The translations under genes and the position numbers were made by a program. From sequence record OP745616: DNA of 64,000 nt; one strand, written 5' to 3'. This DNA comes from Escherichia phage E20. The notes beneath the pieces are model-generated. The model had not been told where the DNA came from. It made no database searches and was given only the letters and a program-made list of their open reading frames with translations. This document shows positions 5,914 through 34,683 of the stretch, piece by piece. Each line of letters begins with the position of its first letter. The first letter of the stretch is position 1.

Positions 5914-6054
5914 TAAACGTGCAGTAGAAGACTTCTATGCTCATAGAGAGTTGGTACTGAAACGCATCAATGAAGCAATGAAACGTGAGGCTGAAGCTAA
6001 AGCTAAGCATAACCGTAAATAAATCCAAATGCGAGCCAAGAGGACTAATCTCAA

Positions 6055-6297
6055 ATGAGTAAGCTATTAAAACTGTGGTTAATTAGCCAAAGTGAAAACC
6101 GTGGGCATGACTCCTTTGATTCTGCTGTTGTAGCAGCCTACACAGAGGAAGAAGCTAAACAAATTAATCCAGACGGAGAATGGAAACTATACACCGCCTG
6201 GTGTTCTTCACCAGATAAAGTACATGTTGAGTACCTGGGTATTGCCACCGAAGGCGTGGAACCAGGAATAGTATTGTCATCATTTAATGCTGGTTAA
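6055..6297 (+). CDS. Hypothetical protein (80 aa)
   Basis: ORF between the two RNAPII genes. Confidence 0.45.
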   Translation: MSKLLKLWLISQSENRGHDSFDSAVVAAYTEEEAKQINPDGEWKLYTAWCSSPDKVHVEYLGIATEGVEPGIVLSSFNAG

Positions 6298-6351
6298 TCA
6301 TCCAATAAGCAGGCTCTCCATAGTGGGGAGCCAAGAAGCGAGGAATATACA

Positions 6352-7569
6352 ATGCAACTGTTAACTGCCCGTGAATACCTGAAAGTAGATGTCGCTAACA
6401 ACTATGGCTTAGATAAAAAGACATGGGATGAACGTATTAGCTGGTTCGATGAGAACGAAGCTAATCTGCTCAATCTGGTAGATGAAGCTGAAGAATCTGC
6501 ACTGTTCTATGCTGGTGTAAACGCATGGAAAGATATGAAAGCTGGTAAGCCTATTGGTTATGCCGTAGCTCTGGATGCTACATCATCTGGCTTACAGTTA
6601 CTGGCTTGCCTGACTGGTGACCGTTCTGCTGCTGAACTGTGTAACGTAGTTAACTACATGGGCAAGAATGGTAAGCCATTACGTCGTGATGCTTATACAG
6701 TTATCTATCATAAGATGCTGGACATCCTTGGTGAAGCATCTCGTATTAAACGTAGTGACACCAAGCAGGCAGTTATGACTGCATTCTATGGTTCAGAAGC
6801 TAAACCTAAAGAAGTATTCGGTGAAGGTATCCGTCTCAAGACTTTTGAGAATGTAATGGAAACTGTTGCTAGTGGACCTTGGGCATTGAACAAGTTCTTA
6901 CTGCAATGTGGTAACCCAGACGCTAACCGTTATGTATGGGTATTGCCTGACAACTTCCATGCTGTCATTAAAGTTATGGTTCCTGAAGTACAGACTGTTA
7001 ACTTCTTAGGTAAGCCATTCGACATCACTCGTATGGTCCAAGGTACTGAAGAGAAGACCCGTATGCTCTCTGCTAACATCACCCACTCTATTGATGGGAT
7101 GGTAGTACGTGAGATGCTGCGTCGTTGTAACTTCAACATGAACCAGGTGAACTATATTAAGTCCCTCTGTGAGGGAACCAGTGAATACATGGTTGGCTCT
7201 GATGATAACTATGAAATGGTTAACACACTGTGGTCTAACTATGAGAAGTCGGGATTCCTGTCTACCCGTATCTTTGATTATCTGGACTCTGAAACAATTG
7301 CATTGGTTGATACAGATGTAATCATGGCTATGCTCAATACCATGCCTAAGAAACCATTCCCTGTAATGACCGTACACGACTGCTTCCGTTGTCATCCTAA
7401 CTACGGTAATGACCTGCGTCGTCAGTACAATCAGATTCTGTCTGACATTGCTAAGAGTGACCTACTGGGCTTCATCCTGTCTCAGGTACTGGGACAAGAG
7501 TTCTCTGCTGGTAAGCTGGATGACAGCCTTTGGCAGGACATCCTTGAAACAGATTATGCATTAAGTTAA
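6352..7569 (+). CDS. RNAPII catalytic subunit, T7-like single-subunit RNAP palm/fingers (N4 gp16-like), 405 aa
   Basis: T7 RNAP motif A-like DATSSGLQ, motif B-like RSDTKQAVMTAFYGS, motif C-like TVHDCF. Confidence 0.85.
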   Translation: MQLLTAREYLKVDVANNYGLDKKTWDERISWFDENEANLLNLVDEAEESALFYAGVNAWKDMKAGKPIGYAVALDATSSGLQLLACLTGDRSAAELCNVVNYMGKNGKPLRRDAYTVIYHKMLDILGEASRIKRSDTKQAVMTAFYGSEAKPKEVFGEGIRLKTFENVMETVASGPWALNKFLLQCGNPDANRYVWVLPDNFHAVIKVMVPEVQTVNFLGKPFDITRMVQGTEEKTRMLSANITHSIDGMVVREMLRRCNFNMNQVNYIKSLCEGTSEYMVGSDDNYEMVNTLWSNYEKSGFLSTRIFDYLDSETIALVDTDVIMAMLNTMPKKPFPVMTVHDCFRCHPNYGNDLRRQYNQILSDIAKSDLLGFILSQVLGQEFSAGKLDDSLWQDILETDYALS

Positions 7570-21596: not shown

Positions 21597-22907
21597 ATGT
21601 TTTCCAAACCTACCAAAGCCCCATTGAACCAGGGGCAAGAAGCGGTTGCGAAGGAGTTCTTCGACTTCCTGCTCGACCCTAATGCCACAGAGTTCGGAAT
21701 CAGTGGACCTGGAGGAACTGGTAAGACATTCCTGATGTCGCACCTGATTGATGACACTATGCCTGCATATATGGAAACCTGTTCTCTGATGGGAACCAAG
21801 CCTCTGTATAACGAAGTTGTCATGACAGCGACCACGAACAAAGCTGCTGAAGTTCTGGCTCAGGCTACTGGACGTCCAACGTCTACCTATCATTCCTTCC
21901 AGGGGCTGATTGTTAAGAATGACTTTAAGACAGGTGAGGCTAATGTCGTACCGTCTAAGTCATTCACTATTAAGAAGAACAAAATCATCTTCGTAGATGA
22001 AGCATCCATGATTGACCGTCAGTTACTTAAGTATGCTCGTGAAGGTACTCACCAGTGCAAACTGGTATTCGTAGGTGATGCTTCTCAGCTTCTGCCCGTT
22101 AAAGAGAGTAAGTCTCCAGTGTATGCAGGTAATATCCCAACACACTATCTGACTGAACAAATGCGTACCGATACACCAGAACTCAAAGCATTGCACCAGC
22201 AATTGCGTGATACGGTGGAGGGTAAGACAGGCTTCCTGCCTATTAAATGTATTCCGGGCATTATTGACTGGGTACAAGGAGAAGAGATGGAGAAACTGGT
22301 TCTCAGTCACTTCACCCAACCCACCAACAGCCGTATTGTTGCTTACACAAATGACCAGGTTATTAATTACAATAACTACATTCGTGAAGCTAATGGCTAC
22401 GTGGGTGAATACTCCATCGGTGAACAGCTTGTTTCTAACTCAGCCGTTCGCTTAGGCGTGGATGACCGTCTGTCTATCGAGCAGGACGTAAAACTCATTG
22501 ACCAGGATAGCAGTACTCGCATGATTAAGGTTACAGGTGACCTGGAACTGGAAGTTCGTGATAGTACTCTCGATCTTGGTTATGGTGGTATCGTAAGTGA
22601 AGTACCAGTTCCTACCGACCCAGACTACTTTAACCGTTTGGTTAAGTGGTTAGGTAAAGAGAAGAACTGGGAACCTTATTTCCGTCTTAAAGAAACCATT
22701 CCAGACCTCCGTGCTACTCATGCATGTACTGTTCATAAATCACAAGGCTCTACTTACGACACAATCTTCATTGATGCAGATGACCTCTCAAGCTGTCGCC
22801 AACCTGATATGGTTGCCCGTCTGCTTTACGTCGCTGTGTCCCGTGCCCGTAAGCGTGTAGTGTTCTATGGCAATCTTGCCAGTAAGTATGGTGGTCTAAC
22901 TTTCTAA
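21597..22907 (+). CDS. SF1 Dda/RecD-like DNA helicase, 436 aa
   Basis: Walker A GPGGTGKT, Walker B FVDEASM, C-terminal VHKSQGSTYD and AVSRARKRV motifs. Confidence 0.8.
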   Translation: MFSKPTKAPLNQGQEAVAKEFFDFLLDPNATEFGISGPGGTGKTFLMSHLIDDTMPAYMETCSLMGTKPLYNEVVMTATTNKAAEVLAQATGRPTSTYHSFQGLIVKNDFKTGEANVVPSKSFTIKKNKIIFVDEASMIDRQLLKYAREGTHQCKLVFVGDASQLLPVKESKSPVYAGNIPTHYLTEQMRTDTPELKALHQQLRDTVEGKTGFLPIKCIPGIIDWVQGEEMEKLVLSHFTQPTNSRIVAYTNDQVINYNNYIREANGYVGEYSIGEQLVSNSAVRLGVDDRLSIEQDVKLIDQDSSTRMIKVTGDLELEVRDSTLDLGYGGIVSEVPVPTDPDYFNRLVKWLGKEKNWEPYFRLKETIPDLRATHACTVHKSQGSTYDTIFIDADDLSSCRQPDMVARLLYVAVSRARKRVVFYGNLASKYGGLTF

Positions 22908-23457: not shown

Positions 23458-26037
23458 ATGCGTTACATCACCTCTCAGGATACTGGCAAGTATCCTATTG
23501 CTATCCTCGGTCATCAAATCCGAAGGGAGGAGATGATTAAAACCTACCTGCTGCCTTATGACCTAAGCATGGAAGATTTCATCTTCCTTGAACTTCATTC
23601 TGCCCCAGGTAAGAAGAAGACTCCTGCAAGGGAGATCAAGGAGTTCATACAGCAGGAACTGCAACAAGTACTGGACGATGCAGAGACTCGGTACATTATC
23701 TGTACCGATTCTGACTATTTCAAAATACTGACTAAAGAAGCTAAAGCAGAGGCAAACCTCGGCTATGTTTGTGATTCAGTATGGGGTAAGCAGAAGGTTA
23801 TCTATACACCCAGTTACAGACAGGTCTTTTATGACCCACCTGTAGTGAAAGCCAAGATTGCTCAGGGTATGGATGCATTACTTAACCACATTCGTGGACA
23901 GTATGCTGAACCAGGACAGGGAATCATTGAGTTTGAAGCCTATCCAGATACGCCTGAAAAGATTAAAGCCTGGTTAGACCAGTTGCTTGAGATGAATAAG
24001 CCTCTGGCTATAGACATCGAATCCTTCGGTTTAAAGCACTATAACGCTGGTATAGGAACGATTACGTTCTGTTGGAGTAAGACACAAGGCATAGCCTTTA
24101 ATGTGGACTACGAGCCGATTAAGGGGGCTACTGAAGCTCCTTATGGGCGTATCAACAGGAACGATGTTGTTCGTAACCTATTACGTGAGTTCTTCATTAA
24201 GTACACACAGCGGCAGATGTATCACAACATTAGCTATGACGTGTACATACTTATCTATCAGTTATTCATGGATAATCTGATTGATACGGAGGGCTTACTG
24301 CATGGCATGGAAATCATGCTGCGTAACTGGGACTGTACTAAGTTAATCACATATCTGGCTACTAACAGTTGTGCTGGCAATCACCTTAGTCTTAAAGACC
24401 AGGCTCAGGAGTATGCTGGTAACTATGCTCAGGATGATATTAAAGACATTCGTCTTATTCCTAATGAGCAATTGTTACGCTACAACCTCATTGATGGTTT
24501 GTGTACGTGGTACACCTACGAGAAGCACTGGGATACTCTCATTGCTGATGACCAACTGGATGTTTACAACAACATCTTTAAACCAGCCTGTGAAGACATT
24601 ATTCAGATGCAGTTAACCGGTATGCCCATGAATATGGAAACCGTTAACCAAGTAGCTGAAGAGATGGAAACTGACAGGAACCAGGCACTGAAAACTATTC
24701 ATGAGTCTAAGCTCATGAAGAACTTCACCCTGATGCTTCGTCAGGAATGGGTAGACGATAAGAATGCTAAGCTTAAGAAGAAGCAGGTAACGCTGGCTGA
24801 TTGTGACATCGAGTTTAATCCTAACTCCGGTCCACAATTACAGAAACTGTTATTTGATTATATTGGCTTACCAGTTCTTAGTCTTACTAAGAGCAAGCAA
24901 CCTGCTACTGACGGTGACACTATTAAAGCACTGCGTACACATACGCAGAGTGAAGATGTTAAGGAACTGCTCAATGCACTTATCGACTATAAACTCGTGG
25001 ATAAGATTATCACTTCATTCATACCAGCTTTCCGTAATGCACAACCTGGACCAGATGGATGGCACTACCTGTTCGGTAACCTCAATCTTGGAGGAACGGT
25101 ATCAGGACGTCTCTCAGCGTCCGAACCTAATCTACAGACCATCCCCAGTGGTTCTAAATATGCCAAGAAGATTAAGAAATGCTTCGAAGCACCACCAGGC
25201 TGGATATTTTGTGGACTGGACTTTGCAAGCCTTGAAGACCGTATCTCAGCTTTAACTACGAAAGACCCTCAGAAACTTAAGGTATATACCGATGGTTACG
25301 ATGGGCATAGTCTACGTGCGTATGCTTACTTTGGTGAGCAGATGCCAGACATTGTAGATACAGTTGAGTCAATTAATTCTATTCAGACGAAGTACAAGCA
25401 CTTGCGTAGTGATTCCAAAGCCCCAACGTTCTTGCTTACCTATGGTGGCACGTATATGGGCTTGATGAAAAACTGTGGCTTCTCAGAAGAGAAAGCTAAG
25501 ACAACAGAGAAACGTTATCACGACCTCTATGTAGTTAGTGATATGTGGGTTCAGGCTAAGCTAGACGAAGCTGCCAAAACTGGTTATGTAACTGCTGCAT
25601 TTGGTTTGAGAGTGCGTACTCCTTTACTGGCTCAGGTATTACGTGGGACATGTAAGACTCCATATGAAGCAGAAGCTGAAGGTAGAACTGCTGGTAATGC
25701 CTTGGGGCAAAGCTGGTGTCTACTGAATAACCGTGCTGGTTCAGAGTTTATGCGTAAAGTCAGAGCCAGTGAGTTCAGATTAGATATACGTCCTAGTATT
25801 CACATTCATGATGCTCAGTACTTCATGATTCGTGACAACATGGATACCTTGCAGTACACGAACAAGCATTTGGTTGAAGCCGTTAACTGGCAAGACCATC
25901 CTGATATTGCTCATCCAGAAGTTGGTTTGGGTGGGGAACTATCCTTGTTTTACCCAACGTGGGCTAACGAGATTGAGATTCCAAATCACGCTACCCCAGA
26001 AGAAGTTAATCAAATAATTCAAAAGGCATTCGCATGA
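23458..26037 (+). CDS. Family A DNA polymerase with 3'-5' exonuclease domain, 859 aa
   Basis: Exo motif DIESFG; Pol A motif A LDFASLEDR, motif B KAPTFLLTYGG, motif C HIHDAQ; PNLQTIPS. Confidence 0.9.
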   Translation: MRYITSQDTGKYPIAILGHQIRREEMIKTYLLPYDLSMEDFIFLELHSAPGKKKTPAREIKEFIQQELQQVLDDAETRYIICTDSDYFKILTKEAKAEANLGYVCDSVWGKQKVIYTPSYRQVFYDPPVVKAKIAQGMDALLNHIRGQYAEPGQGIIEFEAYPDTPEKIKAWLDQLLEMNKPLAIDIESFGLKHYNAGIGTITFCWSKTQGIAFNVDYEPIKGATEAPYGRINRNDVVRNLLREFFIKYTQRQMYHNISYDVYILIYQLFMDNLIDTEGLLHGMEIMLRNWDCTKLITYLATNSCAGNHLSLKDQAQEYAGNYAQDDIKDIRLIPNEQLLRYNLIDGLCTWYTYEKHWDTLIADDQLDVYNNIFKPACEDIIQMQLTGMPMNMETVNQVAEEMETDRNQALKTIHESKLMKNFTLMLRQEWVDDKNAKLKKKQVTLADCDIEFNPNSGPQLQKLLFDYIGLPVLSLTKSKQPATDGDTIKALRTHTQSEDVKELLNALIDYKLVDKIITSFIPAFRNAQPGPDGWHYLFGNLNLGGTVSGRLSASEPNLQTIPSGSKYAKKIKKCFEAPPGWIFCGLDFASLEDRISALTTKDPQKLKVYTDGYDGHSLRAYAYFGEQMPDIVDTVESINSIQTKYKHLRSDSKAPTFLLTYGGTYMGLMKNCGFSEEKAKTTEKRYHDLYVVSDMWVQAKLDEAAKTGYVTAAFGLRVRTPLLAQVLRGTCKTPYEAEAEGRTAGNALGQSWCLLNNRAGSEFMRKVRASEFRLDIRPSIHIHDAQYFMIRDNMDTLQYTNKHLVEAVNWQDHPDIAHPEVGLGGELSLFYPTWANEIEIPNHATPEEVNQIIQKAFA

Positions 26038-26339
26038 CTAAAAGTACTAAAGAAACCGTCGTCAAAAAATATCATTGGATGGTGGCAGCACAGGTAATCT
26101 TCCAGCTTCCTAAAGCTGAAGATGGTTCCCTGCTTACCATGAACACAATGCTGCTCACTGACGAACCTCATGTGACTTATAAAGATTTGGCTCGTGTCAA
26201 TCACTCCCTGAAGATTAGTCTGGACCAGCGTTTCGACACCTCGGTTGACCTGAAAGATATTGTTTATCTGTCTCTTAGCAACCTGGGTCTGATGTCTGAA
26301 CCAGAGTTCCAGGCAAACATGATTCCCAAGGGGGAATAA
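26034..26339 (+). CDS. Hypothetical protein (101 aa)
   Basis: ORF. Confidence 0.5.
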   Translation: MTKSTKETVVKKYHWMVAAQVIFQLPKAEDGSLLTMNTMLLTDEPHVTYKDLARVNHSLKISLDQRFDTSVDLKDIVYLSLSNLGLMSEPEFQANMIPKGE

Positions 26340-26623
26340 TGACTAAGCTCTCCGGTGGTCTTAATAACTACTATGTAGTTCCAATTAAGAATCCCCAACG
26401 GAAAGAGCAAGAGCCATATCAAGCAGAGTGTGAGGATATTATCCAAGCACTGGGCATGACCTTCGATGAAGGTTGTGCCTTTAAAGCTCTATGGCGAAAT
26501 GCTGCTGCCCGTATGGGTAATGGTAAACCAGGTAACTCTTCGGTGTACGACTCAGAGAAGATTGTGCACTATGCCAATCGAATATTGAAAAAGGCTTATA
26601 ATGAAGATAACCAACAATCATGA
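26339..26623 (+). CDS. Hypothetical protein (94 aa)
   Basis: ORF. Confidence 0.5.
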   Translation: MTKLSGGLNNYYVVPIKNPQRKEQEPYQAECEDIIQALGMTFDEGCAFKALWRNAAARMGNGKPGNSSVYDSEKIVHYANRILKKAYNEDNQQS

Positions 26624-27581
26624 TGTCTCATTGGCTCTGGCTGTATGGCTATTACATGACGAGTATGATTACGTAGACAATCCTAAGTACCTGTCTGCTA
26701 CCACATTGCTTAAACCTATTAAGCAAATCGTCATGAAGCATCGTGTAGATTTTAGTGACCAGTCCATTGATGTTATGGATTTCGTATCCACATCAATGGG
26801 TACTGGCTTACATGACTCTATAGAGAAAGCCTGGAAGCTGGGCCATAAGACTGCATTGAAGAAGCTAGGTTATCCTCAGCGAGTAATTGATGCAGTAGTC
26901 ATTAACCCAACCAAAGCAGACTTTGCTGCTAATCCTGACCTTATCCCAATCTACATTGAACAACGTGGAACCAAACAGGTTAAGGGATGGACTATTGGTG
27001 GTAAGTTCGACATCGTAACGGAAGGTCTGCTGCAAGACTTCAAGTCTACCTCAACCTATTCCTGGGTTGCTGGTTCCCGTGATGATGAACACAAGATGCA
27101 AGGCAGCTTGTATCGTTGGATTCACAACGACATCATTACTGAGGATGTAATTCGTATTAACTACATCTTCACCGACTTCATGAAACACATGGCTAACAGC
27201 AATCCGAACTATCCTGCTAATCGCATTATGCATAAGGATATTCCATTGCTATCTGTCGAGAAGACTGAGCGTTGGGTAGAGGAGAAGATTCACTTAATTG
27301 AAAAGTACTGGGATGCACCTGAAGAGGAAATCCCTGAATGTACTGACGAGGAGTTGTGGCGAACAGAGCCACAGTTCAAATACTTCTCTGATGCTTCTAA
27401 GGTAGATGTACCTGGAGCCAGAAGTACCAAAAACTTTGACGATATGGCATCTGCCCGTATCTTCATGGCTGAAAAAGGTGGCAAGGGTGCTATCAAGGTC
27501 GTGGAGGGACAGGTTAAAAGATGTCTTTACTGTCCTGTCGCATCTATTTGCAAACAAAGAGAGAGATATTTTCCATCATGA
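26601..27581 (+). CDS. PD-(D/E)xK nuclease with C-terminal Cys cluster (Cas4/RecB-like exonuclease), 326 aa
   Basis: FDIV ... QDFK (D/ExK) core and C-terminal CLYCPVASIC (CxxCx5C) typical of Fe-S Cas4/RecB-family nucleases. Confidence 0.5.
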   Translation: MKITNNHDVSLALAVWLLHDEYDYVDNPKYLSATTLLKPIKQIVMKHRVDFSDQSIDVMDFVSTSMGTGLHDSIEKAWKLGHKTALKKLGYPQRVIDAVVINPTKADFAANPDLIPIYIEQRGTKQVKGWTIGGKFDIVTEGLLQDFKSTSTYSWVAGSRDDEHKMQGSLYRWIHNDIITEDVIRINYIFTDFMKHMANSNPNYPANRIMHKDIPLLSVEKTERWVEEKIHLIEKYWDAPEEEIPECTDEELWRTEPQFKYFSDASKVDVPGARSTKNFDDMASARIFMAEKGGKGAIKVVEGQVKRCLYCPVASICKQRERYFPS

Positions 27582-29731
27582 GTATTGACCTTACCGGAGT
27601 AGTGCACCATCCAGCGATTGAAGAAATCGTAGATGTGCTCTGCAATAAAACCCAGAATAACGACCGGGGATTCTTCCGTGTCGAAGTAGCCTACTTCTTG
27701 GCTAAAATGGCATCCTGCATGGGTGCAACCATCGTAACTAAAGACCGTGGTGACCTGCCGGTAAACATCTACGCTATGGCGTTGGCTACATCTGGTTTCG
27801 GTAAAGGTCACTCGGTAAATATCATTGAAGACGGGTTCATGACTGGCTTCCGTAAACGTTTTATGGAAGACACCATGCCCGTCATTGCAAATGACCGTTT
27901 ATGGAAGATTGCTAACGAACGTGCTGCTCGTCAGGGTACGGACCAGAATGATGAGTTTGATAAAGTCGAAGCAGAGTATAAACGTGCTGGGGCATTCCCA
28001 TTCACATTCGACTCTGGTACAGCACCTGCTGTAAAACAACTTCGTCACAAACTACTTATGGCTGGTTGTGGTGCTATTAACCTACAGATTGATGAGATTG
28101 GTTCCAACCTCATTGCCAACGTTGAAGTACTTAACCTGTTCCTTGAGTTGTATGACCAGGGGAAAGTAAAACAGAAGTTAACCAAGAACACTGCTGAAAG
28201 TATTCGTGGTGAAGAACTGGATGGTAAGACTCCTGCTAACCTGCTGCTGTTCGGTACTCCGAGTAAGCTGCTGGATGGTGGGCAGACTGAAGACCAGTTC
28301 TATGACTTCCTCGATACAGGGTATGCACGTCGTTGTCTGTTTGCGATTGGACACTTAGACAAGCGAGCACATGCAACGCTGACCCCGGAAGAAATCTACC
28401 GTAACCTGATTAAGCAGGATAACGTTCAATCTCTTGGTAAGTGGGCTAACCACTTCCATAGTCTGGCTGACCCAAACCTGTTTGGCTTTAAGATGATTGT
28501 GGAAGATGCAGTGGGTATTGCTTTAATTACTTACAAAATTGATTGTGAGAAAAAAGCAGAAGCTATGGCTGACCACGAAGAAATTCGTAAGGCTGAAATC
28601 TCTCACCGTTACTTTAAGGCTCTTAAGCTGGCAGGTGCACTGGCGTTTGTTGACCAGAGTTCATTCATTGAGATGTCTCACCTTAAACAAGCAATCCTGC
28701 TCGTAGAAGAATCCGGGGCAGCATTCCAGGGTATTCTCAATCGCGAGAAAGCCTATGTGAAGCTGGCTAAGTACATTGCCTCCGTAGGTAAGGAAGTGAC
28801 ACATGCTGACTTGCTGGAGTCATTACCGTTCTATAAGAGTGGTAATGCAGCTCGCAATGAGATGATGACTCTTGCTACAGCATGGGGTTACAAACAGCAC
28901 ATCATTATTAAGAAAACCTTCAATGAAGGTATTGAGTTCTTTCGTGGTGAGACTCTGAAAGAGACTGACACCAATGAGATGATAGTGGCATATAGTGATA
29001 GCTTTGCTTATGACTATGTTGGTGAACGTGTACCGTTTGACCAGCTACATGTATTAACCCAAGCTCCCGGTATGCACTGGGTGAACCATCACATGAAGAA
29101 TGGGCATCGTTCTGAAGAGAACGTTATTCCAGGATTTAACATGATTGTTATTGATTGTGATGGCGGAGTACCTCTGCATACGTGCCATGAACTGATGAAG
29201 GAATATAAGTTCATGACCTATACCACTAAGCGTCATACCGACGAAGAGAACCGCTTCCGTCTGATTATTCCAATGAACTATGAGTTACACCTCGACACTG
29301 AGGAATACAAAGAGTTCATGAATAACGTTATGGCTTGGCTACCATTTGAAACGGATGAGTCTGCTAACCAACGAGCCAAGAAGTGGATGTCCTGTGAGAC
29401 TGGTTCCTATCATTACAACCTTGATGCAAATCTGTTGGATGTACGTGACTTTATTCCTCGTACCAGTAAGAACGAGCAGTTCCAGAACCAGATGAAGGAA
29501 GTTCAGTCGTTAGACAATCTGGAGCGTTGGTTCGCTGGTCGTATTGCCTCCGGTAATCGTAATAATCAAATGATTAAGTACGCACTGGCATTAGTAGACA
29601 GTGGTTGGGACTTTGCTCAAGTACAGCAAGCCGTCTACTCATTCAATAAGAAACTGGCTAATCCATTACCAGATGATGAATTGAATTCAACCGTAATGGT
29701 CACCGTGGCTAAACGCTTCGCTGGCAAGTAA
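27578..29731 (+). CDS. Replication protein, putative primase-like (N4 gp43-like), 717 aa
   Basis: Large replication-module protein; IVIDCDGG acidic motif; ATGA overlap with upstream gene (ORF track 27521 is an in-frame extension). Confidence 0.4.
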   Translation: MSIDLTGVVHHPAIEEIVDVLCNKTQNNDRGFFRVEVAYFLAKMASCMGATIVTKDRGDLPVNIYAMALATSGFGKGHSVNIIEDGFMTGFRKRFMEDTMPVIANDRLWKIANERAARQGTDQNDEFDKVEAEYKRAGAFPFTFDSGTAPAVKQLRHKLLMAGCGAINLQIDEIGSNLIANVEVLNLFLELYDQGKVKQKLTKNTAESIRGEELDGKTPANLLLFGTPSKLLDGGQTEDQFYDFLDTGYARRCLFAIGHLDKRAHATLTPEEIYRNLIKQDNVQSLGKWANHFHSLADPNLFGFKMIVEDAVGIALITYKIDCEKKAEAMADHEEIRKAEISHRYFKALKLAGALAFVDQSSFIEMSHLKQAILLVEESGAAFQGILNREKAYVKLAKYIASVGKEVTHADLLESLPFYKSGNAARNEMMTLATAWGYKQHIIIKKTFNEGIEFFRGETLKETDTNEMIVAYSDSFAYDYVGERVPFDQLHVLTQAPGMHWVNHHMKNGHRSEENVIPGFNMIVIDCDGGVPLHTCHELMKEYKFMTYTTKRHTDEENRFRLIIPMNYELHLDTEEYKEFMNNVMAWLPFETDESANQRAKKWMSCETGSYHYNLDANLLDVRDFIPRTSKNEQFQNQMKEVQSLDNLERWFAGRIASGNRNNQMIKYALALVDSGWDFAQVQQAVYSFNKKLANPLPDDELNSTVMVTVAKRFAGK

Positions 29732-29787: not shown

Positions 29788-30540
29788 ATGTCCGAAGAAA
29801 TCTCCAACGATATGAACACTCAGCTAATCCTGATTGCAGGATTCTCAGCAAGTGGTAAATCAGCATCGCTGCGTAATATCCGGAACCAGGAACGCTGGCT
29901 GTATCTGAATACAGAAGCAGGCAAGCGTCTACCTTTTCGTAATAAATTCAACACCTACAACATTGAAGACCCATATCAGATTTGGGAAGCATTTGATGTT
30001 GCATCTCCAGGTGGTGAAATGGCAGATGATGTTGATGGTATCATCATCGACTCTGCTACCTTCATGATGGACATGTTGGAATCCCAGTATGTATTGCCAT
30101 CTGCTAATACTCAGAAAGCCTGGGGAGACTTTGCACAGTTCTTTAAAATACTGCTGCAACAGAAAGTCGTTAAGTTTGGTAAGCCAGTAATTATTACTGC
30201 ACATGCCAAAGATGAACTCGACGAAGCTGCTGGTGTGATGAAAACATTCATCCCAGTTAAAGGCTCCCTGAAGAACAATGGCCTTGAGGCTTACTTCTCT
30301 ACAGTGGTTTACGCAGAACGTGTAGACATTAAGGAACTGGAGAAGTACGGCAACAAGATGCTTGATATTACGGAAGAAGAACGTGACTTAGGCTATAAGC
30401 ACGTATTCCAGACACGTCCAACCAAGAAGTCTGTTGGTAAACGACTTCGCTCACCGATGGGTATGTTTGATAAGTCGCAGACTTACATTGATAATGATGC
30501 CCAAAAACTCTTAGACCATCTGGCTGAATACTACGCTTAA
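29788..30540 (+). CDS. P-loop NTPase, possibly RecA/Sak4-like recombination ATPase, 250 aa
   Basis: Walker A GFSASGKS and Walker B-like IIIDSA. Confidence 0.45.
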   Translation: MSEEISNDMNTQLILIAGFSASGKSASLRNIRNQERWLYLNTEAGKRLPFRNKFNTYNIEDPYQIWEAFDVASPGGEMADDVDGIIIDSATFMMDMLESQYVLPSANTQKAWGDFAQFFKILLQQKVVKFGKPVIITAHAKDELDEAAGVMKTFIPVKGSLKNNGLEAYFSTVVYAERVDIKELEKYGNKMLDITEEERDLGYKHVFQTRPTKKSVGKRLRSPMGMFDKSQTYIDNDAQKLLDHLAEYYA

Positions 30541-30580: not shown

Positions 30581-31384
30581 ATGTCACTGTTCGGTAACTT
30601 GAAAGAAAAAACCAAAAACGTTGAAGCTGCAAAAGACACTCTTGGTGGTGGTGGCTTCGGTGCTAAAGAATCTGATATCTACACTGGTACTGTAAAAGTA
30701 GCTTACGTAGGTAAAGCTGATTCTGGTGCAGACTGGATGCAGTTAATCATCGAAAACCTGAAAGGTTCTGACGGCAATGATGCTGGTGAGTTCCGTGCTC
30801 AGGTGTACTTTACTTCCGGTAATGCTAAAGGCAATAAGCCGACTTACGAGAAGAATGGTAAAGAATACTTCCTGCCTGGCTACACTGTCATTAATGACAT
30901 GATGCTGATGGCTACTGGTTGTGAACTGCCAGATGCAGACTTCGAAGAGAAGATTGTTAAAGTCTATGACTTCGACCTGAAAGCTGAAACCAATAAGTCT
31001 GTCATGGTTCCAGTTGACCTGGTTGGGCAGACTGTTACCTTCGCTCTGGAAAAGGTTCTGGAAGCTAAGCAGGTTAAAGGTGACAACGGTTACGTTGACT
31101 CCGGAGAAACTCGTGAAGTAAACGAGATTCAGAAAGTATTTCACCCGGAATTGCTGGTCACAGTCGTCGAGGCTCAGGAAGCAGAGAAGGCTGAGAAAGA
31201 ACTGACCCCAGAACTGGCTGTATTCTATGCAGCATGGCTGGAAAAGAACAAAGGTAAAACCCGTGATAAGACCAAGGGTTCTGCTGGTGGTAATGGTAAA
31301 GGTGGCTTACCTCCTAAACCAGGTGCAGGTGCTGGCACAGGTACTACTCCTGCTGGTGGTAAATCTCTGTTCGGTAAGCGTTAA
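30581..31384 (+). CDS. Putative single-stranded DNA-binding protein (N4 gp45-like), 267 aa
   Basis: Size and position as N4 SSB; Gly-rich flexible C-terminal tail; no OB-fold motif verified. Confidence 0.45.
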   Translation: MSLFGNLKEKTKNVEAAKDTLGGGGFGAKESDIYTGTVKVAYVGKADSGADWMQLIIENLKGSDGNDAGEFRAQVYFTSGNAKGNKPTYEKNGKEYFLPGYTVINDMMLMATGCELPDADFEEKIVKVYDFDLKAETNKSVMVPVDLVGQTVTFALEKVLEAKQVKGDNGYVDSGETREVNEIQKVFHPELLVTVVEAQEAEKAEKELTPELAVFYAAWLEKNKGKTRDKTKGSAGGNGKGGLPPKPGAGAGTGTTPAGGKSLFGKR

Positions 31385-31938
31385 TGAAAATCCCAATTGT
31401 CGGTGCAGACATTAGTCTCCGCAATTGGGGATTAGCTCGTGGGATGCTGGACATTGAGTCCGGCGTCTTCGAGCAGGTCGAACTTAAACTGGTTCAAACT
31501 GAAGTTGACCACAACAAACAAGTTCGAACCAACTCCAAAGATATACAAGCTGCCCATGATTTGTTTCTTGGTTGTGAGGAATGGTTACGGTCTGCTAAAG
31601 CAGTATTCGTAGAAGTACCAGTAGGCTCTCAGTCTGCTAATGGTATGAAGTCCTATGGTGTATGCGTAGGACTAATCGGTGCATTCCGTGCATTGGGTTG
31701 CCCAATCTTTGAAGTATCCCCAATTGAAAACAAACTTGCACTGGTCGGTGATAAAACTGCATCCAAAGACACGATGATCCGTGCTGCTCATGCCATCTAT
31801 CCTGAAGCCAACTGGCTCACGGATAAGAAAGGTAAACTTCTGAATAAGAATGAGCACTTAGCCGATGCAATCGGTGCAATCCACGCTGGGGTAAATCTAC
31901 CAGCTTTCCAGAATCTCATTAAATTAATAAAGGCATAA
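31384..31938 (+). CDS. RuvC-like Holliday junction resolvase, 184 aa
   Basis: N-terminal IVGADISLRNWGLA and C-terminal EHLADAIGAIHAG resemble RuvC catalytic motifs. Confidence 0.6.
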   Translation: MKIPIVGADISLRNWGLARGMLDIESGVFEQVELKLVQTEVDHNKQVRTNSKDIQAAHDLFLGCEEWLRSAKAVFVEVPVGSQSANGMKSYGVCVGLIGAFRALGCPIFEVSPIENKLALVGDKTASKDTMIRAAHAIYPEANWLTDKKGKLLNKNEHLADAIGAIHAGVNLPAFQNLIKLIKA

Positions 31939-32389: not shown

Positions 32390-33394
32390 TCTGGTAGGTG
32401 GCTCAGAAGCTGCTGCTAGGTGTGGTAGTGTTTATAGTCCTGATGCTACTACTGGTCAGGATTATAGACGTGTCGGCTCCATACATAGCTTTTATCATCA
32501 CTGTCATTATCCTGTGGAAATGCAGTGGTAAACACGGTGGTGACAAGCCGCCAGAATAACAACAACCGAACCAGTGGATTGGAATACTCTCCCCAGTCCA
32601 TTGGTTCAATCGGGGTTACTATGAACAAATTTACTATTCACTGGCTCAATGGAAAGGTTAGTTCTTTCATGGGTGGAGAACCTGCTGAAGGAAGCATTGA
32701 AAAAGAGTAGTTAATATCGTGAAGGGTTCTGTTAGAATCTTTTGAGATAGGAACTCCTATCATAACCTTTCTTAACTTAATCTTTGCCGTATGGCACTGA
32801 CGCTAGGGGTGGCCCCCCATCCGTCAGACAGACTATTTTAAGAATGGGTTATCTCAGAAAATGTAAAGCAACATTCGGGTTAATCAATGGCCTCTCCTAT
32901 AGGGGCCATTTCTGAATCTTAGGCTATATCCCAAAGGTTAGTATCTTTGGGATAAGGCTTCAGATCCCTTATCAAACTAACCGCTCATGTTGAGCATATT
33001 AATTAACCCAGCCCACTAAGGGGGCGGGAGTTTAATGCCGGTAAGCATAAGCCTATCCGACTACAACATCGAACTGTTAGGTCTTACATGCAACATAGGG
33101 TATAAAGGGAGGATTCGTCCCCTCCCTCCTATTATGAACTACCGGAGAGTGCATTAGTTGATTAGCTGTGGAAGGTAGGCCGATGTCCACAAGCGTGGCC
33201 CAGAGCTAGTGTACTCCCCGATAGTTTTCGTAGCGATTATGCGGTTTTTTAGAAACGAACCAATAACATAAATGCAAACGAAGAAGCGTATCTGATGGTC
33301 GCCTAACAGCGTAACCTCAGTCAGGAGTGAGTCGTCCTGATTATCAAACGACCATGGAGTTCTCCCGTCCATGTATTAGAAACGGGGGGCCAAT

Positions 33395-33518
33395 TACCAG
33401 TTGCACGAGATGGCTTGACATGCTCAAGTTTGGACTAAGTGTGACACCGCTAGATTGGAGGGCTGCTGCGGTAAGCTATAGACTCCAACCGGAGGTTCGA
33501 ATCCTTCACTGGTAACCA
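33395..33518 (+). ncRNA. tRNA-like 3' domain (T-arm GGAGG-TTCGAAT-CCTTC, acceptor 3' strand, encoded ACCA); 5' boundary unresolved
   Basis: Canonical T-arm at 33491-33507 followed by ACTGGTA-A-CCA; only perfect acceptor complement TACCAGT is 120 nt upstream at 33395-33401. Confidence 0.25.
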
Positions 33519-33522
33519 ATCA

Positions 33523-33630
33523 GAAGTAGCACTGCATAGAACGCGAAAAGGTTCAGCGACGTTAGCCATACGGTATTGTAAGGTTCGAGTCCTTACCTAT
33601 GAGCAGTGACGACTGCAACAGTGCTACTTC
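33523..33630 (+). ncRNA. Structured element: 12-nt inverted repeat GAAGTAGCACTG/CAGTGCTACTTC enclosing a T-arm-like hairpin (TAAGG-TTCGAGT-CCTTA)
   Basis: Inverted repeat at 33523-33534 and 33619-33630; T-arm-like at 33579-33595; no acceptor stem could be paired. Confidence 0.25.
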
Positions 33631-33646
33631 TAATTGGAATAAATAT

Positions 33647-33724
33647 TGTGGGTGAGCATACGGTTATGCTACAGGCTTCCACACCTGTATGTGAAGTGAG
33701 GTTCAACTCCTCCGCCTGCAACCA
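33647..33724 (+). tRNA. tRNA-like gene with encoded CCA; anticodon loop non-canonical by hand fold (8-nt loop CTTCCACA)
   Basis: Acceptor TGTGGGT/GCCTGCA (7 bp, 3 G-U), D-arm GCAT..ATGC, anticodon stem ACAGG/CCTGT, T-arm TGAGG-TTCAACT-CCTCC, ACCA 3' end. Confidence 0.4.
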
Positions 33725-34291
33725 AACAATGGGGGTAAGTCGTAAATACGACGGCGTAAGTACCAGATGAAACCTCTGGACGCCCCTACCATATTTGAGA
33801 TGTAACAGTTAAATCCGTACCCGGAAGTGCTATTCTAGATACGCTGCCAATGTGGAGACGGTAAGGCTGTACAGGACTCGGACTCCCATCTCAAACCAAA
33901 GTCGCCAGGTACTTATGGCAAACGGGTAGTAACGAACTAGTCATTCGTCAAACGCCCACCTAATTATGAGTCAGCAAGAACGCCTTCACTTAAACTTAAA
34001 CAAAAAAGCTTAACGCAATAATTATGTAGGGGTATGTAAGGATTGCGAAGAAGGAGCCAGTTAGAGCCTGGCATGACTCACCTAATATGAGCACGTCTAA
34101 TCATCCTGGTTAAGCAGTAGCTAATTACTTATTGCTGTAAAATGAACTACTTAATATAGTTCTTCAGATACAGAGTAACTTGGTTGGATGGGGTAGGTAT
34201 CCTGCCCCTGCTCATTCTATTATAGGTAGCTCGTACTAGTTACGAGGCAGTCAATCTGTGGCAGTGTAAGGCTGCCCTACCCTTTCATTAA

Positions 34292-34364
34292 TACCCGGTA
34301 GGCTTAGTGGCAAAGCCCCACTAGTAAACTAACTAGGACGCAGGTTCGAATCCTGCCCGGGTAA
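34292..34364 (+). tRNA. tRNA-like gene; canonical acceptor, D and T arms, but anticodon loop folds as 6 nt
   Basis: Perfect 7-bp acceptor TACCCGG/CCGGGTA, D-arm GGCT-TAGTGGCAA-AGCC, T-arm GCAGG-TTCGAAT-CCTGC; anticodon stem CTAGT/ACTAG with loop AAACTA. Confidence 0.45.
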
Positions 34365-34373
34365 TCATACTAT

Positions 34374-34447
34374 GTCCACTTAGCTTAGACTGGGAAAGCA
34401 ACCGACTAATAATCGGAAGGTCACTGGTTCAAATCCAGTAGTGGACA
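34374..34447 (+). tRNA. tRNA, anticodon AAT by hand fold (would read Ile codons if A34 modified); needs tRNAscan confirmation
   Basis: Perfect 7-bp acceptor GTCCACT/AGTGGAC, D-arm GCTT-AGACTGGGA-AAGC, anticodon arm ACCGA-CTAATAA-TCGGA (C32 U33 ... A37 A38), T-arm ACTGG-TTCAAAT-CCAGT. Confidence 0.55.
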
Positions 34448-34683
34448 CCCATTCAGCAGTAACATAGTCCTGATTGCATAGCACTCTAAAGACAACACTG
34501 GTAAGACAGTCCAGTGGCTGCTAATGTATTGTTATTCCCCTCGACGGGAATTTCGCTAGTGAAGGTAACACTTAAAAATCCAAACCTACGTCTTACTACT
34601 ATCGGGCTATCAACCCACGGTCGCTTAACCCACTAGTGGTAGTAGTTTGACGGCCTGCCTCGTTGACTGCGTTAAAGTCACTA

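Follow-up and report, generated by a model that had tools for sequence, protein, structure and literature searches.

The N4 gp42-type exonuclease gene of an N4-like coliphage: a RecB/Cas4-branch nuclease with its fourth invariant cysteine behind the catalytic core

What does the gene between the DNA polymerase and primase genes of Escherichia phage E20 encode, and is its product a Cas4 protein? In the window (the whole stretch of 64,000 nucleotides from sequence record OP745616 that was analysed), this open reading frame (ORF) lies at 26601-27581 on the + strand, begins with ATG, has 326 codons and ends with TGA at 27581. An earlier note, made from the letters alone, took the product for a Cas4/RecB-like PD-(D/E)xK nuclease with a C-terminal cysteine cluster, proposed a recombination or replication role, and mentioned a link to CRISPR spacer acquisition. 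We found that this N4-like coliphage encodes here an exonuclease of the N4 gp42 type, belonging to a family already deposited under the annotation 'exonuclease'. Its product is a single-domain nuclease of the RecB/Cas4 branch of the PD-(D/E)XK fold. We consider it likely that gp42 is a metal-dependent 5'-to-3' end-resection nuclease used in phage replication and recombination, with one structural metal centre held by four cysteines.

The identity of the gene came from comparison with deposited genomes. The ORF is identical in DNA sequence (100%) to 27041-28021 of Escherichia phage vB_Eco_F22 (OP870143.1), an N4-like Gamaleyavirus of the Schitoviridae, in which F22_0050 carries the deposited label 'exonuclease' and is the sole exonuclease-annotated gene of the whole record. 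The protein shares 71% identity over its full length with N4 gp42, which has the matching position between the polymerase and the gp43 primase and which RefSeq now labels 'exonuclease'. PHROG 2139 ('exonuclease') matches residues 1-325 with an expectation value (E) of 7e-153, and UniRef names the gp42 orthologues 'PD-(D/E)XK endonuclease-like domain-containing protein'. Genome papers speak of 'N4 gp42-like' proteins, for which the early entry 'Unknown' later gave way to PD-(D/E)XK nuclease or exonuclease. The orthologues from N4 and other Schitoviridae have the same length, motifs, four cysteines and neighbours, and nothing of substance differs. The gene is found at a DNA identity of at least 90% in 56 other phage records, nearly all from Escherichia or Shigella, and full-length homologues turn up by tblastn in 471 phage records, mostly from phages of Vibrio, Pseudomonas, Escherichia, Klebsiella, Erwinia and Achromobacter. 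The copy in phage ST4 is 96.5% identical in DNA and 100% identical in protein; that 3.5% of nucleotides changed with no amino-acid change indicates that the gene is under purifying selection. Because the + frame is so strongly conserved, we rejected minus-strand ORFs of 56-87 amino acids within the gene as side effects of the coding sequence opposite.

The placement in the RecB/Cas4 branch is firm, and it is supported by invariant residues and by the predicted fold. Conservation was scored in 145 representatives of 50%-identity clusters, which are 35-53% identical to the query. H71, E120, D137, D146, K148, Q167 and Y171 are found in 100% of them. The D...D/ExK core noticed earlier is D137...D146-F-K148, which is kept as well in the distant homologue of Leptospira phage LE4, and it is followed by Q167-xxx-Y171, an instance of the QhxxY motif defined for Cas4/RecB nucleases (PMC4176176). 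The metal ligands of the Cas4 protein SSO0001 are His62, Asp99 and Glu113 (PMC4176176), and by analogy H71 is predicted to be the metal-binding histidine that corresponds to His62. An AlphaFold2 model built on 60 homologues (mean predicted local distance difference test score (pLDDT) 90.5, predicted template modelling score 0.80, no segment below 50) has the restriction-endonuclease-like alpha/beta fold. The best four structural matches to the model are all Fe-S proteins, and 182 of the 202 residues of SSO0001 align with it. The nearest structures are 5'-end-directed nucleases bearing metal clusters.

Profile searches define how far the resemblance to Cas4 goes. Pfam PF12705 (PDDEXK_1) matches residues 106-318 with 17.6 bits (E 0.0038), which is below its gathering cut-off of 22, and it matches 33 of 60 close relatives at E of 0.1 or less, at best 1e-4. 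The relationship to PDDEXK_1 is real, though sub-threshold. PHROG 1706, 'CRISPR/Cas system associated', gives a weaker match (3.7e-12) than PHROG 2139. The protein has no Pfam match to PF01930 (DUF83, Cas4), no match in NCBIfam at E of 10 or less and no Cas4 match in PADLOC, whose Cas4 model is touched only by the LE4 homologue (2.2e-5). Sequence searches of solved structures gave no meaningful match, whether we used the protein alone or profiles built from 60 and 141 sequences. The relationship to Cas4 is therefore visible only through the fold and the PHROG and Pfam profiles. Compared with Cas4 (SSO0001, 4IC1; Pcal_0546, 4R5Q), gp42 is about 125 residues longer and has neither the profile membership nor the cas neighbourhood. 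Thus the RecB/Cas4 branch and the invariant motifs of the earlier note stand, whereas the profile searches place the protein outside the Cas4 family proper.

The cysteines set the family apart further. There are exactly four in the protein, at residues 247, 308, 311 and 317. The last three, C308-LY-C311-PVASI-C317, form a true CxxCx5C as the note had read it (codons tgt at 27522, tgt at 27531 and tgc at 27549, read on the DNA), which is the spacing of Cys200/203/209 in Pcal_0546 (PMC4176176). At the cysteine frequency of the protein (4/326), only about 6e-4 such motifs would be expected by chance anywhere in it. C247 occurs in 100% of the representatives, and C308, C311 and C317 in 99% each. 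Conservation of these cysteines and of the catalytic residues at 35-53% identity shows that the features are not due to chance.

The fourth cysteine lies in a part of the protein that appears to be specific to the family. The stretch of residues ~216-305 leads from the last core strand to the C-terminal triad and is modelled (pLDDT 87-97) as a helix (219-236), a long loop and a small beta-beta-alpha-beta unit; the C247 loop itself, residues 241-250, has a pLDDT of ~93. The pattern [LI]PxC[TS]x[EK][ED][LK]W around C247 by itself finds 558 relatives in IMG/VR. In BFVD, the whole model is matched only by an N4-like phage protein (template modelling (TM) score 0.90), and all other viral Cas4-like or RecE-like nucleases reach a TM score of 0.45 or less.

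The N-terminal cysteine of the Cas4/AddB type of cluster is absent, and no cysteine precedes residue 247. In the two Cas4 proteins of solved structure, this cysteine is found 30 residues ahead of the metal-binding histidine (C32/H62 in SSO0001, C64/H94 in Pcal_0546; PMC4176176), so that the canonical position falls at residue 41 here, where gp42 has Lys or Arg; its fourth invariant cysteine instead comes after the core. Over the first 100 aligned positions, Cys never exceeds 5% in any column, and 115 of the 145 relatives lack it completely in that region. The canonical Cas4-like AH2 gp75 of a Burkholderia phage reads 'SSAMWLTCP' where our protein reads 'LSATTLLKP'; the comparison of the N-terminal motif is based on alignment by eye and on the Cys-to-His spacing in the literature. 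Only the C-terminal triad was matched when hhalign was run against AH2 gp75 (9.7% probability), and AH2 gp75 itself gave no match to solved structures. The earlier note had asked for all four cysteine ligands: four invariant cysteines are present, but the one expected at the N-terminus is replaced in position by C247, which may complete a rebuilt metal site as its fourth ligand.

How could such a site have arisen? AddB, AdnAB, Dna2 and EXO5 contain iron-staple domains that share with gp42 the fold and the C-terminal cysteine triad, and these nucleases are 5'-end-directed and are used in end resection and replication. Apart from EXO5 they have a helicase motor as a fusion or as a partner, and their N-terminal helix is stapled to the C-terminus. 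In contrast, gp42 is a stand-alone protein with a different putative fourth ligand, and a separate Dda-like helicase is encoded ~3.7 kb upstream. We tentatively propose, at somewhat less than even confidence, that the gp42 family branched off from the iron-staple nucleases and was 're-stapled': the ancestral N-terminal cysteine was lost to Lys/Arg, the cysteine of the C247 loop took over as the fourth ligand, and the metal centre fastens an added C-terminal subdomain, instead of the N-terminal helix, to the core.

The four cysteines could alternatively hold a structural zinc, in which case the protein would be no Fe-S enzyme. Sequence cannot decide between the two metals, and the label Fe-S is putative. 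A related nuclease, the putative DUF3799 exonuclease 3L0A from Eubacterium rectale, has zinc bound in its crystal structure (PMC3466216); it has the canonical one N-terminal and three C-terminal cysteines, and is closer to RecE. On the other hand, the CX2CX5C spacing of gp42 is exactly that of proven Fe-S nucleases, the four best structural matches are Fe-S proteins without exception, and zinc in over-expressed four-cysteine proteins can be an artefact (PMC3466216). We regard zinc as the less probable choice, albeit a serious one.

The gene neighbourhood suggests what an end-resecting gp42 would do in the infected cell. The gene is part of a block in the order Dda-like helicase, a gene of no known function, DNA polymerase, two small ORFs, gp42, primase, Sak4-like annealase, single-stranded DNA-binding protein (SSB) and RuvC-like resolvase (Table 1). 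The position between polymerase and primase is thus as first described, with the two small ORFs following the polymerase. A weak Shine-Dalgarno sequence, AAAGG, is found 8-13 nucleotides before the exonuclease ATG, and its TGA shares the ATGA at 27578-27581 with the ATG of the primase (read on the DNA), suggesting that the two genes are probably translationally coupled. In IMG/VR, the primase is directly 3' of gp42 in 80/80 loci, and an annealase is co-encoded in the order gp42-primase-Sak4 in 64/64 loci with enough downstream sequence; the same order is found in 7/7 informative loci from genome collections. These loci are almost exclusively on N4-like contigs, and the association with an annealase outside the N4-like group is represented by one example, phage LE4. 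The Sak4-like protein and the SSB are encoded 2.2-3 kb downstream of gp42 in these 64 loci. The SSB of N4, gp45, has been characterised by experiment and is related to an SSB of phage HK620 that stimulates annealing by Sak4 (PMC5928155). The gp44-like Sak4-type protein is the likely recombination partner of gp42.

The example from LE4, a phage outside the N4-like group, is instructive. LE4 gp62 (6001-6909) is only 28% identical but keeps all four cysteines and all catalytic residues. It lacks a segment of about 30 residues that corresponds to residues 89-118 here, a short helical excursion ahead of the first core strand, and its triad has CxxxC in place of CxxC, while C247 and the loop motif are kept. 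The gene is two genes after one for a RecT-like annealase, in place of Sak4, which is the classic exonuclease/annealase arrangement. The fixed gene order and the RecT neighbour in LE4 argue for a 5'-to-3' end-resection nuclease in replication and recombination, consistent with the role first proposed for the gene.

By analogy with Cas4 SSO0001 and RecB, H71, D137 and D146 would bind Mg2+/Mn2+ and K148 would activate water. The enzyme would thread a free 5' end and degrade it 5'-to-3', as SSO0001, Pcal_0546, AddB and yeast Exo5 degrade DNA from a free end (PMC3466216, PMC4176176). 3' single-stranded tails would be left at genome ends or breaks, to be coated by SSB and annealed by the Sak4-like protein. 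Annealing could then drive recombination-dependent replication, concatemer formation and the joining of genomes via terminal repeats, and the RuvC-like resolvase would clear the junctions. C247, C308, C311 and C317 would jointly hold one structural metal centre, by CX2CX5C homology most likely [4Fe-4S] or [2Fe-2S] and possibly Zn, and this centre would tie the family-specific stretch to the C-terminal helices, whereas in iron-staple nucleases it is the N-terminal helix that is tied.

Lambda Exo and RecE have the same 5'-to-3' polarity. They have no cysteine metal site, whereas gp42 has four cysteines; exonucleases of two-component phage recombinases (lambda Exo, RecE, YqaJ) form toroidal trimers or tetramers; and the presumed partner of gp42 is the RecA-like Sak4, as opposed to Redbeta or RecT for nucleases of the lambda Exo/RecE type.

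Several points weigh against end resection as the role of gp42. The 2009 genome paper lists N4 gp42 as 'Unknown', the 'exonuclease' label in the databases is an annotation by similarity, and no biochemical or genetic data on gp42 or a close homologue were found in the searchable literature. Cleavage in the 3'-to-5' direction or endonuclease activity is also found in some Cas4 proteins (PMC4176176). The polarity, the kind of substrate (single-stranded DNA, double-stranded DNA or a flap) and the pairing with Sak4 are each inferred, and the primase gene between gp42 and the annealase makes the pairing looser than in lambda or Rac. A phage-coded 5'-3' exonuclease was reportedly purified from N4-infected cells in 1986. 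It is probable that gp42 is the gene for this activity; we found no explicit assignment in the literature.

Alternatively, gp42 could be a nuclease of the replication fork, which would work with the polymerase and primase on either side of it and remove 5' flaps or RNA-primed ends in lagging-strand maturation like eukaryotic Dna2/Exo5. We think this unlikely as the main role: an annealase, an SSB and a resolvase are encoded in the same block, and the LE4 homologue adjoins RecT and not a polymerase. Primer removal in N4 is attributed to the 5'-3' exonuclease of host Pol I. A fork role is nevertheless a reasonable alternative; it and a recombination role are not mutually exclusive and may coexist.

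Most improbable is a counter-defence or CRISPR role, in which the nuclease would supply CRISPR adaptation with fragments derived from the host, or break down the DNA of the host or of competitors: Campylobacter phages have a Cas4-like protein associated with host-derived spacer acquisition (PMC4283603) and the PHROG 1706 match speaks for such a role, but the Cas4 models of Pfam, NCBIfam and PADLOC all stay silent, and gp42 is a core gene of the same replication block at every locus examined, in phages of hosts from Escherichia to Vibrio, Pseudomonas and roseobacters. The same block across such different hosts indicates a housekeeping replication gene and not an accessory counter-defence gene. 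No cas1/cas2, other cas genes or CRISPR arrays were found near the gene, its neighbours being replication and recombination genes in every locus examined. We therefore dropped the suggested link to spacer acquisition, and degradation of host DNA was rejected with it because no context supports either role.

Table 1. Positions in the window of the gp42-like gene, its motifs and the genes of the replication block; percentages give conservation among the 145 representatives
Feature	Position	Strand	Remarks
gp42-like exonuclease ORF, 326 amino acids + stop	26601..27581	+	= F22_0050 / WBF79681.1 in OP870143.1
N-terminal motif S32-A-T34-T-L36-L-K38-P39-I-K41-Q	26694..26726	+	S32 99%, T34 97%, K/R38 90%, R/K41 97%
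H71...E75 on long helix 58-88	26811..26825	+	H71 100%, E75 97%; helix in model
E120-Q-R122, first core beta-strand, invariant acidic/basic residues	26958..26966	+	E120 100%, R122 99%
RecB motif II (D137) and motif III (D146-F-K148)	27009..27044	+	100%, also in LE4 homologue
QhxxY motif, Q167-G-S-L-Y171	27099..27113	+	Q167 and Y171 100%
Apparently family-specific stretch, residues ~216-305 (~90 residues)	27246..27515	+	boundaries inferred
P245-E-C247-T-D-E-E-L-W253, invariant fourth Cys	27333..27359	+	C247 100%, P245 89%, L252 97%, W253 99%
C308-xx-C311-x5-C317 triad	27522..27551	+	each 99%; spacing of Pcal_0546 Cys200/203/209
gp37-like Dda/RecD-type superfamily 1 helicase, block start	21597..22907	+	PHROG 325 E 1.8e-135; AAA_30, UvrD_C_2
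gp39-like family A DNA polymerase	23458..26037	+	PHROG 17 E 5e-171; DNA_pol_A
gp43-like DNA primase	27578..29731	+	PHROG 2135 E 0; PriCT_1
gp44-like Sak4-type single-stranded DNA annealing protein, RecA-like core	29788..30540	+	PHROG 124 E 7.6e-50; AAA_24
gp45-like SSB	30581..31384	+	PHROG 743 E 4.9e-89
gp46-like RuvC-type Holliday junction resolvase	31384..31938	+	PHROG 159 E 3.5e-42

We would like to point out some features next to the gene. A 94-amino-acid ORF at 26339-26623 (+) overlaps the exonuclease start by 23 nucleotides and is annotated 'polynucleotide kinase'. It matches only positions 229-312, the last ~85, of a 316-position PHROG for a 3'-phosphatase/5'-polynucleotide kinase, has no Pfam match, and has proteins of unknown function as its best PHROG matches; the kinase label looks unsupported. 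N4 has the 202-amino-acid gp41 at the place that this ORF has in F22. An HNH homing endonuclease gene is annotated beside the exonuclease gene in phages G7C, PhAPEC5, Mimir124, U1G and ZQ2, and F22 has none there, which suggests that the junction of gp42 and primase is a hot spot of homing-endonuclease insertion.

Downstream of the replication block, the region 32390-34450 has ~1.9 kb with no ORF of more than 72 amino acids and ends in two tandem tRNA genes, one at 34292-34364 (Rfam tRNA 40 bits, anticodon undetermined by ARAGORN) and a tRNA-Ile with anticodon AAT at 34374-34447 (65 bits). A weak, sub-threshold tRNA-like match is found at 33646-33721. The GenBank record has one tRNA and one coding sequence of 40 amino acids only in this region, and N4 shows a comparable gap from gp47 to gp48.

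The gp42 family is essentially restricted to phages, because the informative loci from genome collections lie mostly on contigs of 69-76 kb, which are N4-like phage genomes binned with metagenome-assembled genomes (MAGs). Two contigs are unusual. JANQNF010000027.1 ('MAG: archaeon isolate PL23a_bin.95', 69,347 bp) carries the replication block, with proteins 81-94% identical to those of the coliphage; it is almost certainly the genome of a Gamaleyavirus-like phage that a binning error placed in an archaeal MAG. A Roseococcus sp. MAG has the N4-like replication block in full (helicase, polymerase, gp42, primase, Sak4, SSB and RuvC; 41-56% identity) at 59615-72580 of NZ_CBDDFJ010000021.1, a contig of 296,681 bp and not of the ~70-kb phage size. 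N4-like phages are regarded as strictly lytic. Either the assembly of this 297-kb contig is chimeric, or the contig holds a relative that is integrated or unusual in some other way.

As the gene represents a core family of a well-known phage group, it has little weight as a discovery. Its modest value is rather that gp42 is the leading candidate for the classical 5'-3' exonuclease of N4. The relocated fourth cysteine is the one mildly new point, mainly for specialists in Fe-S nucleases: since the topology of the metal site differs from that of textbook Cas4/AddB, gp42 would be a convenient small model for what the 'staple' does. If the Fe-S cluster is genuine, every N4-like phage would need Fe-S assembly by the host for its DNA replication.

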